A DNA stretch of 64,000 nucleotides from Rhodobacteraceae bacterium UBA1943 (GCA_002336845.1 DDEX01000035.1:2474-66473); one strand, 5' to 3'; positions 10,533 through 31,817 are shown, numbered from the stretch's first letter. Numbers and translations are program-made. Notes: generated by a model from the sequence alone, not told the origin.

Positions 10533-11381
10533 TCAGCAATAGCGGCGGAAGCGGTCCACTATCACGTCCAGAACCTCGTTGGGGTCACGTTTCCACCAGT
10601 CTTCCGCCGAGAATATTTCGACTTCGCACAGTCCGGCGTAGCCGGCTCTGTCCTCGACCGCGCGACGTATCGCGAGCAGGTCGGCCACTCCGTCGCCCAT
10701 CATCCCTCGATCGAGCAGCATGTGCGATGTGTCTTCGAGCCAGTCGCACAAGTGATAACCCAGTACCCTGCCACGCGCGGCAGAGAGAGAGGCCGCAAGC
10801 CGGGTATCCCACCAGACATGATAGACATCGACCGCAATCCCCACATTCGGTGCCGCGATCGTGTGGCACAGCTCCAGCGCCTCGGCCACGGTGAAGAGGC
10901 AGGTCCTGTTGCCACCGAACATCGGGTTTAGCGGTTCCAGTGCCAGCGAAACACCTCGGTCTGCCGCAAAGGGGGCAAGTGCCGCCACACGGTCGGTCAG
11001 ACGCTTCTGCGTTTCGGCCAGACCCTTGCGCCCCGGATCGGTTCCGCCTGTCACGATTGTCAGGACCTTCGCCCCAAGATCCGCTGCCATGTCGATGCTT
11101 GCACGCGCGCCATCGTCCTGGTCAGGCGCATCGCGACCCACCAGATAGGGCGTCCGGCACAAGCCCACGACCTGCATTCCCGCCGCGCGCACCCGATTGC
11201 CGATCTCGATGGCACGCTTGCCGATCTCGCGCCGCCAAAACACGATTCCGCCGTAACCACGCGCCGCGCAGGCGTCGATTACACGTTCAGGCGACCACCC
11301 GGCCCCGGCCCCGTCCAAGTTGTGGCCCAAGCTTGCAGTGTTCAGGGCCAGGGCCGAGTGGTCATTCGTGAAGTCCCTCAC
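10533..11381 (-). CDS. Sugar phosphate isomerase/epimerase (xylose isomerase-like TIM barrel)
   Basis: Typical AP-endonuclease-2/TIM-barrel pattern (..LALEPLNP.., ..GIAVDVYHVWWD.., ..GYHLCDW..). Last gene of the ACAD-SDR-DUF993 operon. Confidence 0.8.
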   Translation of the reverse strand: MRDFTNDHSALALNTASLGHNLDGAGAGWSPERVIDACAARGYGGIVFWRREIGKRAIEIGNRVRAAGMQVVGLCRTPYLVGRDAPDQDDGARASIDMAADLGAKVLTIVTGGTDPGRKGLAETQKRLTDRVAALAPFAADRGVSLALEPLNPMFGGNRTCLFTVAEALELCHTIAAPNVGIAVDVYHVWWDTRLAASLSAARGRVLGYHLCDWLEDTSHMLLDRGMMGDGVADLLAIRRAVEDRAGYAGLCEVEIFSAEDWWKRDPNEVLDVIVDRFRRYC

Positions 11382-11382
11382 A

Positions 11383-12537
11383 TCACGCCCCGTAAAGCGC
11401 GAGAAGGTTCTTCATCCGGGTCACCGCAATGTCGGGATCGCGCAGAAGGCCGCAGCCATCGGCAAGGCGAAACACTTCGGTGAAATAGGGCAAGGGACGC
11501 ATCGCCTGCGCACCGTTCAGCATGACGAAATGGTCCTGAAAGCCGTTCAGCCAGGCCAGAAACACTACGCCGGTCTTGTAGTACTGCGTCGGCGCCCTGA
11601 AGATGAGCCGCGCCAGAGGCACGGTTGGGTCCAGCGTGGCGCGGAAACCTGCCGTATCGCCCTGGCCCAAAAGGCCCACTGCATGGGCGGCAGCGGGAGC
11701 AAGGGGGTCGAAGATGCCAAGCAGCGCGTGGCTGAAACCCTGGTCATCCCCTTCGATCAGTTCGGGATAGTTGAAATCGTCGCCGGTGTACATGCGAACT
11801 CCCGCCGGCAGGCGGCGGCGCATCAGGATTTCCTTGTCCTTGTCGAGAAGGCTGATCTTGATTCCGTCCACTTTGGACTGATTGCGATGGATCACCTCGA
11901 GTGCCGTCTCCAACGCGTCTTCGAACCGGGGGCTGCCCCAATATCCGGCGAGTTGTGGGTCGAACATTTCACCCAGCCAGTGCAGGATCACCGGCTTGTC
12001 ACAGGCCGCAAGAACCCGGTCGTAAACCTTCAGGTAGTCTGCCGGCCCCTTGGCGACCCGCGCCAATGCCCGGCTGGCCATCAGGATAATACGGGCATCC
12101 AGCTTCTGGATCGCCTCGACCTGTTCAAGATAGGCGCGGATCACATCGTCGAGGCTGCGGGCATCTGCGGGATTCAGATGGTCAGTGCCGCAGCCGTTGG
12201 CGACAAGCGCGTCGGGCAGTTCTTCCCGCGTGCGGCGGATCAGGTCCAGCGCGCCGGTCCAGTCCAGTCCCATGCCTCGTTGCGCGGTGTCCATCGCCTC
12301 AGCGATGCCAAGGCCAAGCCCGTGCAGGTAGCGCCGGAAGGCCATGGTCTTTGCCCAATCCACTACGGCGCGGCCCGAGGGATCATTCGCCGTGAAAGGA
12401 TCGGCAACCACATGAGCGGCCGAATAGACGACGCGGGCCGCGCCACGCCCCAGCCGCCCGGAGGCAATCGGTGTTCCGGTCAGGCGATAGTCGGACATCC
12501 GGCCATCGGCATCGGGCAGGGCGATCTTCATGGCCAA
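11383..12537 (-). CDS. DUF993 family protein (DHDPS-like TIM barrel fold, function unknown)
   Basis: N-terminus MAMKIALPDADGRMSDYRLTG..VVYSAAHVVADPF and a 384-aa length match my recollection of DUF993. Only 1-nt spacer to the next gene. Confidence 0.6.
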   Translation of the reverse strand: MAMKIALPDADGRMSDYRLTGTPIASGRLGRGAARVVYSAAHVVADPFTANDPSGRAVVDWAKTMAFRRYLHGLGLGIAEAMDTAQRGMGLDWTGALDLIRRTREELPDALVANGCGTDHLNPADARSLDDVIRAYLEQVEAIQKLDARIILMASRALARVAKGPADYLKVYDRVLAACDKPVILHWLGEMFDPQLAGYWGSPRFEDALETALEVIHRNQSKVDGIKISLLDKDKEILMRRRLPAGVRMYTGDDFNYPELIEGDDQGFSHALLGIFDPLAPAAAHAVGLLGQGDTAGFRATLDPTVPLARLIFRAPTQYYKTGVVFLAWLNGFQDHFVMLNGAQAMRPLPYFTEVFRLADGCGLLRDPDIAVTRMKNLLALYGA

Positions 12538-12542
12538 TCCTT

Positions 12543-29928: not shown

Positions 29929-30063
29929 TTGTTATGCCTTGGCCAAGTCAAGAAGTTTGTTCGACCTGACCACCCAAAGAATTTACATTCCGCTTTGACG
30001 AGATCGGCCCCCCGTGTGTAAACATGACGCTAACGCAAACAGCAGGGGCGGACCGGATAGTTC

Positions 30064-30732
30064 ATGGAAAGTGCTGAAAAAGGTGCGACCGAAAAGCCTC
30101 CGGCACCGACCAGGCCCCGAACCAGGGATGCCGAAGCGACCAAGGCGCGTATCCTTGACGCAGCCAAGCGCGAGTTTGCAAAAAACGGCCTCGGCGGCGC
30201 CCGCGTGGATGTGATCGCTGAAAAGGCCCGCGCAAACAAGCGCATGATCTATCACTATTTCGAGTCGAAGGAGGGTCTGTTTCAGACGATCCTGGAAAAC
30301 GCCTATGTCGATATCCGCACCGCCGAACAGAAGCTGAACCTCGATCACCTCGCCCCGAAGGAGGCGCTGGAGCGTCTGGTCCGTTTCACCTGGGACTACT
30401 ACCTGAAGAACCCAGAGTTCATCACGCTGGTGAACAGCGAGAACCTCCACCGCGCCAAGCACCTGAAGAAATCCGAGGTCGTGAAAGTTTACAGCCGCAA
30501 GTTCGTGTCGATGGTGGCAACCATCCTAGATCGCGGCGCCGCGGCGGGGGTGTTTCGCCCGGGCGTCGATCCGGTGCAGTTGAACATCACCATTGCAGCG
30601 ATCGGGTATTATTATCTGACCAACCGCTTCACGGGTGCCATCGTGTTCGAGCGTGACCTGATGGCGAAGGACGCGTTAGAGGAGCGGCTACGGTTCAACA
30701 TCGATACGATCTTACGTCTGGTGGCAGCCTGA
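30064..30732 (+). CDS. TetR/AcrR family transcriptional regulator (candidate island regulator)
   Basis: N-terminal HTH (TKARILDAAKREFAKNGLGGARVDVIAEKARANKRMIYHYFESKEGLF); 222 aa. Confidence 0.88.
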   Translation: MESAEKGATEKPPAPTRPRTRDAEATKARILDAAKREFAKNGLGGARVDVIAEKARANKRMIYHYFESKEGLFQTILENAYVDIRTAEQKLNLDHLAPKEALERLVRFTWDYYLKNPEFITLVNSENLHRAKHLKKSEVVKVYSRKFVSMVATILDRGAAAGVFRPGVDPVQLNITIAAIGYYYLTNRFTGAIVFERDLMAKDALEERLRFNIDTILRLVAA

Positions 30733-31161
30733 TCAAACGTCCCAGACAAGGCCCAACGCCCGCAGTCCCGCCTCGGCGCAGGCCACGTCTTCGGGCTCCT
30801 GCGCCCCCGAAACCCCGACACCGCCTATGACGACGCCCTGATGCACCGCCGGAAGCCCGCCGCCCCAGGGCAATAGCCGCTGCCGGGTGGACAAGCCAAG
30901 CGCCAGCGAGGGACGGGACGTCATGCGGTCGGCAAAGGCGGCAGTAGCACGGCGCATCGTTGCGGCGGTAAAGGCCTTGTCCTCGGCAAAGGACAGGATG
31001 GGGGGCGTTGCGGTCTCCATCCGTGCGGAGGCAAGAGTATGGCCCTGCGCGTCAACAACGCAGACCGCCACGGTCAGCCCCTGCCGTCTCGCTTCATCCA
31101 GCGCGGCTTCGACGATCTGGCGGGCGGTTTCGTAAGACAGGGTTGCGATCAGGCTGATCAT
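30733..31161 (-). CDS. GlcG/HbpS-like heme-binding protein (DUF336)
   Basis: 142 aa. Ending ..[33 protein letters not shown] is typical of DUF336. Confidence 0.75.
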
Positions 31162-31817
31162 TTGGCCATCTCCTCCCAGTCGAGAAGGATGAAAGGTTCT
31201 GTGATCTGTCGCGCCATGATGGCCGCATAGATCGCTGCAGGGTCATTCGGTATGGCGCGGTGGATCAGCCCATCAAGCGGGATCTGCCCTTCGGCCAGCC
31301 ATTGCAGCGAGCGTTCGAAGCCGCCAAAAATCGAGTGAGGCGCGTTGTTGTATCCCTCCAGCAGTTCTTCCCATTGGAAGCTGCGGCCATGCATCGGCAG
31401 TTCCCACTCCCACCCTGATCGCAGAGTGACATGGTTAAAGAATACCGCTTGGGTCACGTCATGCGCCGAATGGTCGGAACACTTGCGCCAAGGCACACCG
31501 CGGATCAGGTCGCTGCCCTTCTCACCGATCATGATGGTCGGCGCGTTCGTGTCGGACGAATTGATCCGCGGCCAGTTCGCGGCATCGCACACTCTTAGCC
31601 CGTCGATCCCCCGCAATCGCAGATGCGGATCGACCACCGCCATCTTATCATCACCCAGGAGGCCATCACTTCCGTGGAAGGCGTCGGCAAACAGCTCATT
31701 CCCCTCGGCACGGCGGAAATACGGCAGGACGGAGGTGGTGGAGTCTTCGCTCAGCCGACCGGCCAGAACACTGCCAGACGACCCGCCACCGATGATGATG
31801 AAATTCACGTCCCGCAT
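31158..31817 (-). pseudogene. Chimeric gene fossil: internally deleted GMC oxidoreductase fused in frame to the C-terminal end of a medium-chain-dehydrogenase-like protein
   Basis: FAD motif [20 protein letters not shown] joins directly to ..YFRRAEGNE.., then to the GMC C-terminus ([39 protein letters not shown]). ~400 aa of a normal GMC enzyme are missing. ~110 extra aa follow, resembling an MDR C-terminus. Confidence 0.6.

Follow-up and report, generated by a model that had tools for sequence, protein, structure and literature searches.

The enzymes that take L-sorbose to 2-keto-L-gulonate are known from vitamin C precursor production. L-sorbose dehydrogenase (SDH) and L-sorbosone dehydrogenase (SNDH) act in series, via L-sorbosone, and 2-keto-L-gulonate builds up in the Gluconobacter strains reported to have both enzymes (PMC7092628; PMC10602560). 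According to the citing paper, a Sinorhizobium sorbose dehydrogenase has activity on 1,5-anhydro-D-glucitol (Araki, 2015, cited in PMC8135088). The deoxyribonate route of Klebsiella michiganensis has a CoA-synthetase, a 3-hydroxyacyl-CoA dehydrogenase, a thiolase, a CoA-transferase and a glycerate kinase (PMC6365646).

The window, i.e. the whole stretch of DNA analysed, comprises 64,000 nucleotides of Rhodobacteraceae bacterium UBA1943 (GCA_002336845.1 DDEX01000035.1:2474-66473), and the island spans positions 10533-31817 (Table 1). An initial annotation described an orphan catabolic island joining uptake and alcohol oxidation to beta-oxidation-like steps and a glycerate kinase, an interpretation that is partly supported. 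Each gene family it listed is found in its place by Pfam, but the Dabb gene was overlooked. No island gene has an equivalog-level NCBIfam name, except for a provisional model for the SDR (NF009386, 331 bits; cut-off 250). The cluster is widespread rather than orphan and probably encodes an undescribed route for breakdown of a sorbose-like or ring-locked (anhydro) sugar; characterised counterparts were found for only two of its enzymes and not for the cluster as a whole.

Table 1. Predicted genes and operator sites of the island (window coordinates).
Feature	Position	Strand	Domains, matches or location
TIM barrel, xylose-isomerase-like (AP_endonuc_2)	10533..11381	-	PF01261, E 7e-34
DUF993 protein, candidate Schiff-base class I aldolase-like C-C lyase	11383..12537	-	PF06187, E 5e-179
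Short-chain dehydrogenase (SDR), FabG-like	12543..13304	-	PF13561/PF00106
Acyl-CoA dehydrogenase (ACAD), short-chain/cyclic-acyl type	13301..14443	-	all three ACAD domains
Operator 1, GTAACTATATGGTTAC	14458..14473		ACAD/AKR1 divergent region
Operator 2, TGCACTATATGGTTAC	14551..14566		ACAD/AKR1 divergent region
Aldo/keto reductase 1 (AKR1), accessory	14581..15597	+	PF00248
MaoC-type (R)-hydratase, accessory	15594..16046	+	PF01575
MOFRL/DUF4147 glycerate 2-kinase-type protein	16049..17308	-	PF13660 + PF05161
Dabb (stress-responsive A/B barrel) protein, 103 aa	17305..17616	-	PF07876, E 8e-13
Crotonase-family enoyl-CoA hydratase/dehydratase	17618..18394	-	PF00378
Fused family-I CoA-transferase, YdiF/propionate-CoA-transferase type	18391..19962	-	PF01144
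Operator 3, GTAACTAACCAGTTAT	19991..20006		CoA-transferase/AKR2 divergent region
Aldo/keto reductase 2 (AKR2), DkgB-like, accessory	20047..20916	+	PF00248
GMC oxidoreductase	20976..22577	-	PF00732 + PF05199
ALDH	22579..24075	-	PDB 7W5L match, E 2.6e-261
Operator 4, GTAACCGAATAGTTAC	24119..24134		internal, ahead of ALDH-GMC
Zn-dependent polyol-type dehydrogenase (Zn-ADH), accessory	24155..25186	-	PF08240 + PF00107
CUT2 ABC importer: permease, double ATPase, permease	25188..28679	-	PF02653, PF00005 x2, PF02653
Periplasmic sugar/polyol-binding protein, Tat-signal	28708..29850	-	PF13407
Operator 5, TGCACTAACTGGTTAC	29913..29928		binding protein/TetR divergent region
Putative TetR-family repressor, TetR_C_29 ligand domain	30064..30732	+	PF00440 + PF17938
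GlcG/HbpS-like protein	30733..31161	-	PF03928
Second GMC oxidoreductase remnant, N- and C-terminal pieces only	31158..31817	-	PF05199 C-terminal piece + N-terminal FAD motif
Operator 6, GTAACTAGTTCGTTAC	31829..31844		upstream of GMC remnant

Over 490 residues aligned without gaps, the ALDH shares 75.3% identity with the crystallised SNDH (7W5L), and it retains the Cys295-Cys296 pair. The first gene of a Gluconobacter operon is 98.8% identical to 7W5L, and therefore the GMC gene directly 3′ of it would be the FAD L-sorbose dehydrogenase, an assignment made by position. The island GMC shares 69-74% identity with that Gluconobacter protein and no more than 49% with its own paralogues. Thus, the ALDH/GMC pair corresponds to Gluconobacter SNDH/SDH, the ALDH by sequence comparison and the GMC by its position next to the ALDH. 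Because of these matches, the front end is not the anonymous polyol (alcohol to aldehyde to acid) chemistry envisaged at first, but is of the SNDH/SDH type.

With the CoA-transferase as anchor, 80 related loci were collected. The island is carried by 38 full-length genomic loci from three orders, with synteny in Rhodobacterales, Rhizobiales and Paracoccus; at 75-77% nucleotide identity, the syntenic replicons include Sinorhizobium meliloti pSymA and those of Paracoccus, Ensifer, Sagittula and Roseateles. The gene order CoA-transferase-(crotonase)-ACAD-SDR-DUF993-TIM is constant across orders. Among the 38 loci, the GMC is present in 35, the SDR, DUF993 and TIM barrel genes in 34 each, the ALDH in 31, the ACAD in 30 and the glycerate kinase in 28. 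The grouping is far beyond chance, and the gene cluster is real and widely conserved. Crotonase is found in 23 of the loci and is missing from every Gluconobacter operon. The two AKRs (AKR1 in 19 loci, AKR2 in 23), Zn-ADH (17), MaoC (11; not in S. meliloti, Paracoccus ferrooxidans or Gluconobacter) and the ABC importer are accessories particular to lineages. In Gluconobacter, ALDH-GMC-CoA-transferase-glycerate kinase-ACAD-SDR-DUF993-TIM form one operon, followed by ETFβα-ETF-QO-sugar porter; in one Paracoccus the same core is also a single co-directional operon. ETF and ETF-QO are part of the system in relatives but not in the UBA1943 island.

The six operators mentioned in the initial annotation are borne out. 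The motif GTAAC-N6-GTTAC has four matches with at most one mismatch where 0.22 are expected, a number reached in none of 100 shuffles, and TGCAC-N6-GTTAC variants add two further sites. All six lie in island promoter regions, and the sites are absent elsewhere in the window. The position of operator 3 is kept in six related loci (L005, L007, L036, L018, L019 and L058), the first two of which also conserve operator 4. The motif precedes CoA-transferase, ACAD and ALDH genes in Rhodobacterales, Paracoccus, Mesorhizobium and Gluconobacter, and TetR orthologues 62-89% identical adjoin the cluster in Gluconobacter, Paracoccus and Rhodobacterales. These data support the prediction that the island is one regulon under a single putative TetR repressor, in keeping with the co-regulation of its units that had been proposed.

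The structure closest to the CoA-transferase is E. coli YdiF (2AHU; E 2e-100). The crotonase gene overlaps that of the CoA-transferase by 4 nt and its product retains both catalytic Glu positions. The Dabb gene lies between crotonase and glycerate kinase; its ATG (17616) falls 1 nt after the crotonase stop, and its own stop overlaps the start of the glycerate kinase. The latter scores 198 bits with the archaeal glycerate 2-kinase model, below that model's cut-off, and its S. meliloti orthologue is named TtuD3. The ACAD retains the catalytic Glu in YEGT; acryloyl-CoA reductase AcrC followed by cyclohexane-1-carbonyl-CoA dehydrogenase are its best NCBIfam models, below cut-off. The MaoC protein has the SGD..H motif.

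The DUF993 protein matches PDB 4DNH (SMc04132, uncharacterised; E 1e-140). Foldseek relates its AF2 model (pLDDT 86.6) to DHDPS structures with probability 1.0 and target-normalised TM scores of 0.67-0.84. An invariant lysine, K227 in DGIKIS, aligns with the GIKDS lysine of a DHDPS-family protein, in a profile alignment that is non-significant alone (E 0.24); DUF993 does not have the GxTGE and Tyr motifs that are canonical for DHDPS. Fold and motif position suggest a candidate class I aldolase-like C-C lyase. The earlier statement that the island has no aldolase is thus doubtful, given the DHDPS/NAL aldolase fold and a lysine at the Schiff-base position. The TIM barrel gene is the last of the ACAD operon, and the solved structures closest to its product are 3JU2 (S. 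meliloti SMc04130, uncharacterised) and 3QC0.

Ribose/arabinose-type models match the CUT2 importer below cut-off. The binding protein has an SRRNFLL motif (Tat signal) and is closest in structure to 2RJO, with the M. smegmatis polyol-binding proteins further off. The Zn-ADH is matched best, though below cut-off, by the models for scyllo-inosose 3-dehydrogenase and L-threonine 3-dehydrogenase.

The explanation tentatively favoured here is that the island, as one TetR-repressed regulon, is for the aerobic breakdown of a neutral carbohydrate of pyranose shape, either L-sorbose or, preferably, a 1,5-anhydrohexitol such as 1,5-anhydro-D-glucitol. L-sorbopyranose is the 5-hydroxy analogue of 1,5-anhydro-D-glucitol. 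Uptake would be by the CUT2 importer here, by a sugar-porter MFS protein in Gluconobacter and, in one relative, by a TRAP system that takes up the acid directly. The GMC flavoenzyme and ALDH would convert the exocyclic CH2OH to a carboxylate, as has been shown for Gluconobacter SDH/SNDH. Family membership and chemical reasoning suggest that the YdiF-type CoA-transferase then forms a thioester, acidifying the alpha-hydrogen; that the ACAD, together with ETF and ETF-QO, introduces an alpha,beta double bond; and that crotonase, alone or additionally, removes the beta-hydroxyl. With an alpha-alkoxy acyl-CoA, either reaction would give an enol ether, hydrolysis of which would yield an open-chain 2-keto or 2-keto-3-deoxy acid. 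The SDR-DUF993-TIM triad may oxidise or isomerise this product and split it by a Schiff-base retro-aldol reaction on Lys227 of DUF993. Similar reasoning would have the C3 products pass through glycerate to 2-phosphoglycerate by way of the MOFRL kinase. Zn-ADH, the two AKRs, MaoC and Dabb would be lineage-specific helpers, which may open side entries, repair stereochemistry or reduce glyceraldehyde. The order first proposed, uptake, alcohol/aldehyde/acid, CoA ester and glycerate kinase, fits the conserved core.

Several observations favour this explanation. The catalytic residues of ACAD, crotonase and MaoC are intact, and a dedicated ETF and ETF-QO are found within the Gluconobacter operon. 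The second-best ACAD model works on a ring-borne acyl-CoA. A variant in Szabonella alba differs in having no GMC and ALDH, but a TakP-type (alpha-keto/hydroxy-acid) TRAP system, and an AMP-forming ligase ahead of the CoA-transferase, which points to the acid as an intermediate. In Mesorhizobium, a diverged paralogous CoA-transferase-crotonase-ALDH-GMC-SDR-DUF993 set encloses an AFR-like Gfo/Idh/MocA reductase gene. Against it, some variants lack glycerate kinase, some the ACAD and some crotonase. Moreover, DUF993 and TIM go with Gfo/Idh/MocA enzymes but no CoA enzymes in most Alphaproteobacteria, so that the triad may act on a free sugar and not on a thioester product. As to the substrate, 2-keto-L-gulonate has no alpha-hydrogen, so ACAD and crotonase cannot act on its CoA ester. 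The accumulation of this acid in Gluconobacter with SDH/SNDH suggests that either L-sorbose is not the physiological substrate or the pathway order differs.

The best of the alternatives, though unlikely, is a true L-sorbose/2-keto-L-gulonate pathway. L-sorbose, taken up directly or formed from L-iditol or D-sorbitol via Zn-ADH, and 2,5-diketogluconate, via the DkgB-like AKR, would both give 2-keto-L-gulonate, which DUF993 would cleave to hydroxypyruvate and L-glyceraldehyde. From hydroxypyruvate/tartronate semialdehyde, the TIM barrel and SDR would make D-glycerate for the kinase, and the CoA-transferase and ACAD would take the L-glyceraldehyde/L-glycerate half. SNDH orthology with the neighbouring SDH-type GMC gene is consistent with this scheme. 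So are the best AKR2 model, 2,5-didehydrogluconate reductase DkgB, which produces 2-keto-L-gulonate (233 bits; cut-off of 327 not reached); weak Zn-ADH matches to L-idonate 5-dehydrogenase; and weak NCBIfam matches of the TIM barrel to hydroxypyruvate isomerase, found along with IolO and 2-oxo-tetronate isomerase. To our knowledge, the substrates of DHDPS-type enzymes are always 2-keto acids, and the Szabonella TRAP protein belongs to the alpha-keto-acid-binding subgroup. However, the role left to CoA-transferase, ACAD and ETF is contrived, the minimal operon has neither AKRs nor Zn-ADH, and the Gluconobacter strains accumulate 2-keto-L-gulonate rather than consume it. L-sorbose is also unlisted as a growth substrate in Biolog tests of S. 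meliloti, which carries the cluster (PMC4207669, Table 2).

Less probable again is the analogy drawn by the initial annotation, in which a deoxy-sugar acid is shortened in the manner of beta-oxidation: ACAD, hydratase and SDR would convert the CoA ester of a 2-deoxy or 2,3-dideoxy aldonate to a 3-ketoacyl-CoA, with glycerate freed by the CoA-transferase for the kinase. CoA-transferase, ACAD, crotonase, MaoC, FabG-like SDR and glycerate kinase would supply three of the four beta-oxidation activities, the genome encodes at least five thiolases outside the island, and the Klebsiella route is a precedent. Yet, as the initial annotation had it for the island, thiolase is lacking: a search of 104 related loci, each with 10 kb around it, found none. 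Because crotonase is absent from the Gluconobacter operons, ACAD from several others, and MaoC and the other accessories are lineage-specific, a full beta-oxidation turn is not conserved. In addition, the three most conserved partners, DUF993, TIM and GMC, are given no role, and the product of an SNDH/SDH-type front end is an acid of the 2-keto or uronate type rather than a deoxy-aldonate.

A doubtful reading, third among the alternatives, gives the CoA enzymes a small hydroxy or keto acid (C3-C5) as substrate instead of the sugar acid. Here the dehydrogenase-DUF993-TIM set would first degrade a free sugar derivative, after which one small acid product would gain CoA from the short-chain-type CoA-transferase and pass to the short-chain ACAD for oxidation. 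Of 20 genomes sampled, 16 place DUF993 and TIM alongside Gfo/Idh/MocA enzymes, sugar/carboxylate transporters and a related TetR, with CoA enzymes absent. The likeness of the CoA-transferase to YdiF/propionate-CoA-transferase, acryloyl-CoA reductase as best ACAD model, and the resemblance of the Szabonella TRAP protein to pyruvate/lactate binders also agree with a small acid. However, the Szabonella and Pseudorhodobacter variants without GMC and ALDH keep SDR-DUF993-TIM behind the CoA-transferase, and thus the triad is still needed when the starting compound is an acid; the fixed gene order likewise argues against this reading.

That unrelated enzymes have collected on a mobile island with no common pathway is very improbable: plasmid or megaplasmid location in several genera, varying accessory content and a decayed GMC gene at one edge would fit, but all promoters have the common operator, kept across orders, the Gluconobacter core is merged into a single operon, and core genes co-occur in 30-35 of the 38 loci. 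The decayed GMC gene matches choline-dehydrogenase models in two stretches.

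The initial annotation had listed the genes between positions 10533 and 31817. ORF listing and Pfam scans bear out every gene it named, but it lacked one, that of a small Dabb (stress-responsive A/B barrel) protein. The same gap is filled by small open reading frames of 103-143 aa in four related loci (L015, L028, L045 and L048), and the Dabb gene was not found in the S. meliloti and Paracoccus ferrooxidans clusters; open reading frames in the GC-rich related loci were chosen with a GC3-based picker. The island has three tight operons on its minus strand. No island enzyme has an equivalog-level NCBIfam name, and their standard annotation is therefore generic. 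The nearest structure to the binding protein, 2RJO, is named merely "Twin-arginine translocation pathway signal protein" and provides no ligand clue.

Layout of the island and of a related variant cluster
Feature	Position	Strand	Remarks
ACAD-SDR-DUF993-TIM barrel operon	14443 down to 10533	-	junctions: 4-nt overlap, gaps of 5 and 1 nt
CoA-transferase-crotonase-Dabb-glycerate kinase operon	19962 down to 16049	-	
Dabb gene, 103 aa	17305-17616	-	translationally coupled; between crotonase and glycerate kinase
Binding protein-permease-ATPase-permease-Zn-ADH, then ALDH-GMC, operon	29850 down to 20976	-	
AKR1-MaoC, AKR2 and TetR gene		+	
GlcG/HbpS-like gene	30733-31161		far end of island; coupled to GMC remnant
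Variant cluster of Szabonella alba (related locus L018) and adjoining TRAP system	1871-7539 and 14755-18620		

The palindrome GTAAC-N6-GTTAC is found at positions 14458, 19991, 24119 and 31829, and a variant, TGCAC-N6-GTTAC, at 14551 and 29913. The four matches to the palindrome (at most one mismatch) compare with 0.22 expected, and none of 100 shuffles reaches four. Each of the six sites falls within an island promoter region, the regulator's own included, and there are none elsewhere in the 64 kb. In loci of Alitabrizicola, Paragemmobacter, Mesorhizobium sp. BAC0120, Paracoccus, Szabonella and Gluconobacter, too, GTAAC-N6-GTTAC stands ahead of the CoA-transferase, ACAD and ALDH genes in corresponding positions. 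The island displays the pattern of a TetR-family regulon with a putative palindromic operator. That its units belong together, as first proposed from the sequence, is well supported, because the operator is shared across the island promoters and recurs at the same places in relatives. A second, collapsed GMC oxidoreductase gene, of which only N- and C-terminal pieces are left, is at 31158-31817 on the minus strand, still downstream of a perfect operator copy (31829-31844).

The island had also been regarded as an orphan. This is not borne out; the same gene order is found on replicons of Sinorhizobium meliloti (pSymA), Paracoccus, Ensifer, Sagittula and Roseateles, at 75-77% nucleotide identity. 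A scan of the genome collection with the CoA-transferase yielded 80 loci, the closest from Alitabrizicola rongguiensis (93%), which places the window in the Rhodobacterales. Genes were counted with a tblastn matrix of 19 window proteins against the CoA-transferase loci; the 38 counted loci are those whose 10-kb flanks are complete and whose CoA-transferase has an identity of 74% or more. The GMC is present in 35 of these 38 loci, the TIM barrel, DUF993 and SDR in 34 each, the ALDH in 31, the ACAD in 30 and the glycerate kinase in 28. Crotonase and AKR2 are each found in 23 loci, AKR1 in 19, the ABC genes in 17-19, Zn-ADH in 17 and MaoC in 11.

Seventeen Gluconobacter loci and one Paracoccus locus have one co-directional operon with the TetR gene divergent, and the minimal order is ALDH-GMC-CoA-transferase-glycerate kinase-ACAD-SDR-DUF993-TIM. 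The genes of this minimal operon make up the conserved core, to which particular lineages have added the ABC importer, MaoC, Zn-ADH and the two AKRs. The Gluconobacter operon continues with ETF-beta, ETF-alpha, ETF-ubiquinone oxidoreductase (ETF-QO) and a sugar-porter MFS transporter. ETF-beta and ETF-alpha genes follow the TIM gene in 25 loci, the closest relative (L005) among them. The only ETF genes of the island's own genome are at the edge of another contig (C90:3-1665), starting 3 bases from the contig end. The ETF-beta on C90 is 92% identical to that of L005, which directly follows the L005 TIM-barrel gene, whereas the window TIM gene is followed by unrelated genes. The ETF-alpha on C90 matches in two frames (776-1480 and 1504-1665), and this suggests a frameshift or an assembly error.

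The first two enzymes of the core have characterised counterparts, as judged from sequence and gene position. The ALDH is 75.3% identical to 7W5L, the crystallised and assayed L-sorbosone dehydrogenase (SNDH) of Gluconobacter, over 490 ungapped residues (E 2.6e-261). In SNDH the catalytic Cys296 is preceded by Cys295, the two forming a redox pair (PMC10602560); the Cys295-Cys296 pair is kept in the ALDH, and FNTGQCCVSSSRL is found in both aligned sequences. These comparisons identify the ALDH, at the sequence level, as an SNDH orthologue. The 7W5L protein is itself 98.8% identical to the first gene product of the Gluconobacter operon (loci L059 and L065), and the published SNDH is therefore the head of this operon. 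In Gluconobacter roseus B4931_cRAD (locus L062, ~6908-8282) the match of the SNDH orthologue to 7W5L is split into pieces of 212 and 246 aa, and the gene may be disrupted or frameshifted.

The GMC protein begins DYVIVGGGSAGC, with an N-terminal FAD-binding GxGxxG motif, and has the domains PF00732 and PF05199. Its identity is 69-74% to the product of the gene immediately behind SNDH in 17 Gluconobacter loci; with its own paralogues it reaches 49% at most. The ALDH-then-GMC order is common to the island and the Gluconobacter SNDH/SDH genes, and from the position beside the SNDH gene we infer that the GMC is the orthologue of L-sorbose dehydrogenase (SDH). SDH and SNDH convert L-sorbose to L-sorbosone and then to 2-keto-L-gulonate (PMC7092628, PMC10602560). 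The Gluconobacter enzymes have been studied solely as 2-keto-L-gulonate producers. The searchable SDH/SNDH papers make no mention of a downstream CoA-transferase, glycerate kinase, ACAD, SDR, DUF993, TIM, ETF or ETF-QO. A role in choline/betaine or carnitine metabolism was rejected, the likeness of the GMC and ALDH to BetA/BetB being below cut-off and the transporter being of the sugar type.

Within the CoA module, E. coli YdiF (2AHU, E 2e-100) is the nearest structure to the CoA-transferase. Catalytic residues are kept in the ACAD (the YEGT glutamate), the crotonase (both glutamates) and MaoC (the Asp/His motif). The presence of ETF and ETF-QO genes in the Gluconobacter operon indicates real electron transfer from the predicted ACAD; Gluconobacter has little fatty-acid oxidation. 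The UniProt rule-based name of the ACAD, 3-sulfinopropionyl-CoA desulfinase, was rejected on its score of 273 against a cut-off of 600 and on the retained catalytic Glu. Of these two enzymes, 13 loci have the ACAD alone, at least 6 have crotonase alone, and 17 have both. Whole lineages dispense with one or the other, and the two can partly replace each other across lineages.

The initial annotation had noted that there is no thiolase, and this is confirmed on a wider scale. With three of the genome's own thiolases as tblastn queries (E<=1e-5), no thiolase homologue was found in 84 CoA-transferase loci or 20 DUF993 loci. All island open reading frames fall into non-thiolase families, and thiolases are present elsewhere in the same genome. 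The classical beta-oxidation set is incomplete: the ACAD and hydratases are present and the SDR is a possible dehydrogenase, but a linked thiolase is missing. The glycerate kinase has DUF4147 and MOFRL domains (PF13660, E 6e-77; PF05161, E 7e-35) and is predicted to be a MOFRL glycerate 2-kinase; it scores 198 bits against a cut-off of 550 with the archaeal NCBIfam model and matches no bacterial NCBIfam equivalog model.

The Szabonella alba variant is without GMC and ALDH, and ahead of its CoA-transferase it has an AMP-forming ligase and a TRAP transporter. The ligase is not in the island and, among cluster variants, is found in Szabonella only. The TRAP binding protein belongs to the pyruvate/lactate/alpha-keto-acid (TakP) subgroup. 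This layout speaks for a carboxylic acid as the entry compound of the CoA module. A second TRAP system, whose binding protein matches PDB 4PF6 (E 5e-165), is beside the Szabonella locus; it has its own GntR regulator and was set aside as a neighbouring unit.

The remaining core genes are those of the SDR-DUF993-TIM barrel triad. The sole match of DUF993 is an unannotated structure, 4DNH (SMc04132), and the TIM barrel matches SMc04130 (3JU2), the neighbour of SMc04132. A C-glycoside or levoglucosan lyase system was rejected as a reading, since the TIM barrel gave no close match to either. The AlphaFold model (AF2) of DUF993 has a pLDDT of 86.6 and matches ~50 dihydrodipicolinate synthase (DHDPS) chains (Foldseek probability 1.0, E 5e-10 to 8e-9, target-normalised TM 0.67-0.84). 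The predicted fold is of the DHDPS type, a (beta/alpha)8 barrel that carries a helical domain at its C-terminus. Lys227 is on the sixth predicted strand (223-229) and is invariant in 16 DUF993 homologues down to 58% identity. The surrounding DGIKIS aligns with the DGIKDS of a DHDPS-family protein, where this motif holds the Schiff-base lysine; the alignment is weak alone (hhalign E 0.24). Canonical DHDPS proteins have a GxTGE carboxylate-binding motif and a catalytic Tyr (Y133 in E. coli DapA). Neither was found in the DUF993 consensus, which has LHWLGxMFDP at the aligned position instead of YNxP, and Pfam separates DUF993 (PF06187) from PF00701. DUF993 is thus an outlying branch within the class I aldolase fold and not a canonical member. 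In view of the DHDPS fold and Lys227, the earlier statement that the island has no aldolase is to be withdrawn, but no firm aldolase assignment replaces it.

DUF993 is above the Pfam cut-off in 29 of 301 sampled Alphaproteobacteria. It is accompanied by a TIM barrel, 38-43% identical to that of the window, in 16 of 20 sampled alphaproteobacterial neighbourhoods (L114-L129), and 14 of these 16 also have a TetR gene (39-53% identical). No CoA enzymes were found in any of the 16. Two annotated loci have Gfo/Idh/MocA oxidoreductases and CUT1 ABC or TctA transporters, one with an enolase-superfamily-like protein. The CoA-free loci, including the solved SMc04130 and SMc04132, constitute a separate, uncharacterised carbohydrate module. 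Thus, a dehydrogenase, DUF993 and TIM barrel form an older carbohydrate-type triad; in the island cluster the place of the dehydrogenase is taken by the SDR and the CoA module is added. A function for DUF993/PF06187, 4DNH, SMc04132 or ttuD3 was not found in the literature searched.

L-sorbopyranose is 1,5-anhydro-D-glucitol (1,5-AG) with an extra hydroxyl on the CH2OH-bearing ring carbon, and sorbose C3, C4 and C5 correspond to glucitol C4, C3 and C2 (stereochemistry and mapping worked out by hand). For a sorbose dehydrogenase from Sinorhizobium, a reaction with 1,5-anhydro-D-glucitol has been reported (Araki 2015, as cited in PMC8135088). Because of this mimicry and the reported activity, a scheme that starts with oxidation of a CH2OH group is proposed. 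Acting on a pyranose-shaped substrate, the GMC and ALDH would convert its exocyclic CH2OH into a carboxylate, and the CoA-transferase would form the thioester of this acid. The ACAD, linked to ETF, would then desaturate the alpha,beta bond, or crotonase would eliminate the beta-hydroxyl; with the ring oxygen on the alpha-carbon, either reaction would produce an enol ether (alpha-alkoxy enoyl-CoA). Hydrolysis of the enol ether would open the ring to yield a 2-keto-3-hydroxy or 2-keto-3-deoxy acid, which the SDR-DUF993-TIM triad would split into C3 units. Finally, glycerate kinase would convert glycerate to 2-phosphoglycerate, which would enter glycolysis. As a chemical argument the overall scheme is tentative, although a serious possibility; its ether-opening detail is rather unlikely. 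It provides a role for each conserved protein and explains the mutual substitution of ACAD and crotonase. Of the initial interpretation, a CoA-activated hydroxy-acid that ends at glycerate fits this scheme, and the orphan status and lack of a candidate aldolase do not stand.

The scheme would also explain the build-up of 2-keto-L-gulonate in Gluconobacter, as this acid has no alpha-hydrogen. A bolder and rather unlikely reading is that the cluster is the missing aerobic route for 1,5-AG and related ring-locked sugars, in which the cyclic ether is opened in a new way, via an enol ether, and DUF993 is a new class I aldolase branch. Perhaps the conversion of L-sorbose to 2-keto-L-gulonate is then a dead-end side reaction on a substrate mimic, because the alpha-carbon bears no hydrogen, but this too is improbable. 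L-sorbose as the natural substrate is weakened by S. meliloti, for which growth on L-sorbose is not listed on Biolog plates (PMC4207669).

Two other readings of the CoA enzymes were considered. They may handle a small acid made after cleavage, and the usual occurrence of the triad in a CoA-free context is compatible with this. A beta-oxidation-like deoxy-sugar-acid route, as suggested in the initial annotation, is possible with a housekeeping thiolase, the model being the acyl-CoA route of 2-deoxy-D-ribonate catabolism in K. michiganensis M5al (Price et al. 2019, PMC6365646). In both systems a CoA-transferase and a glycerate kinase are clustered, and the island, like the K. michiganensis route, would handle a sugar acid as a CoA thioester with a C3 glycerate end product. 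The K. michiganensis cluster differs in having a CoA-synthetase, an Hbd-type dehydrogenase and a thiolase, where the island type has no linked thiolase, and its kinase is GarK and not of the MOFRL class; it is without ACAD, ETF, DUF993, TIM barrel, GMC and ALDH (PMC6365646). In the beta-oxidation-like route the GMC, DUF993 and the TIM barrel have no part to play, and the variable presence of ACAD and crotonase gives it no support.

The island can be compared with other known systems. The lower branch of the non-phosphorylative Entner-Doudoroff pathway has a KDG aldolase (DHDPS/NAL), a glyceraldehyde dehydrogenase and a MOFRL glycerate 2-kinase (PMC2063504), and the island has the same kinds of protein, i.e. 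a DHDPS-fold enzyme, an ALDH and a MOFRL kinase. Such a trio would yield pyruvate and glycerate, and then 2-phosphoglycerate. DUF993 is related to the KDG aldolase family only remotely, in structure (12-17% identity), and is without the canonical carboxylate-binding and Tyr motifs, and the Entner-Doudoroff branch has no CoA, ACAD or ETF.

A likeness in enzyme order is provided by cyclohexanecarboxylate degradation (AliA/AliB/BadK/BadH/BadI). There, too, CoA activation leads to a ring-borne acyl-CoA on which an ACAD acts, and a hydratase, an SDR and ring cleavage follow. The second-best NCBIfam model for the island ACAD is cyclohexane-1-carbonyl-CoA dehydrogenase, with all scores far below family cut-offs. 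In cyclohexanecarboxylate degradation, however, the ring is cleaved by a crotonase-family hydrolase, and sugar-type uptake, a glycerate kinase and a GMC/ALDH front end are all missing.

Paralogues of part of the cluster are found in an afr-type (1,5-anhydro-D-fructose reductase) set of Sinorhizobium and Mesorhizobium: CoA-transferase (70-71% identical), crotonase (50-54%), ALDH (48-50%), GMC (51-59%), SDR (39-42%) and DUF993 (57-59%). The Mesorhizobium loci have a LacI regulator, a CUT1 importer and an AFR-like Gfo/Idh/MocA reductase, with the diverged crotonase, ALDH, GMC, SDR and DUF993 genes around them. The afr-type set thus has a LacI regulator, whereas the island cluster has TetR; it has a Gfo/Idh/MocA reductase and a CUT1 ABC system, no ACAD, glycerate kinase or TIM barrel within 10 kb, and no GTAAC-N6-GTTAC operator.

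To our knowledge, CoA thioesters, acyl-CoA dehydrogenases and ETF are almost never used in sugar catabolism. A CoA module in one operon with the industrial Gluconobacter SDH/SNDH genes would be a surprise for the fields of vitamin C fermentation and carbohydrate pathways, and such an operon would give SDH/SNDH a physiological role. A description of the pathway as a whole was not found in the literature searched, nor was a relevant paper that joins an anhydro-sugar or 2-keto-L-gulonate with CoA-transferase, ACAD and glycerate kinase. According to a 2025 review, an aerobic oxidative pathway for 1,5-anhydroglucitol is not known, and an enzyme system of this kind would be medically interesting for lowering 1,5-AG (PMC12441222); the cluster is a concrete, testable candidate for this route. 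If the proposal is true, it would provide a function for DUF993 and for a triad seen in ~10% of sampled Alphaproteobacteria. The cluster is carried by S. meliloti 1021 (at ~750-775 kb of pSymA, with a TetR reported as SMa1428), Paracoccus versutus and Gluconobacter, which are tractable hosts.

Upstream of the island, the stretch 563-10226 of the window begins with a family-5 peptide ABC importer, the last gene of which encodes an M81/MlrC-like peptidase. Next come an RpiR regulator and a gene of the enolase superfamily (MR/MLE) that overlaps a GNAT acetyltransferase gene. Immediately after the island there is an open reading frame of 2,506 aa on the plus strand (32381-39901).
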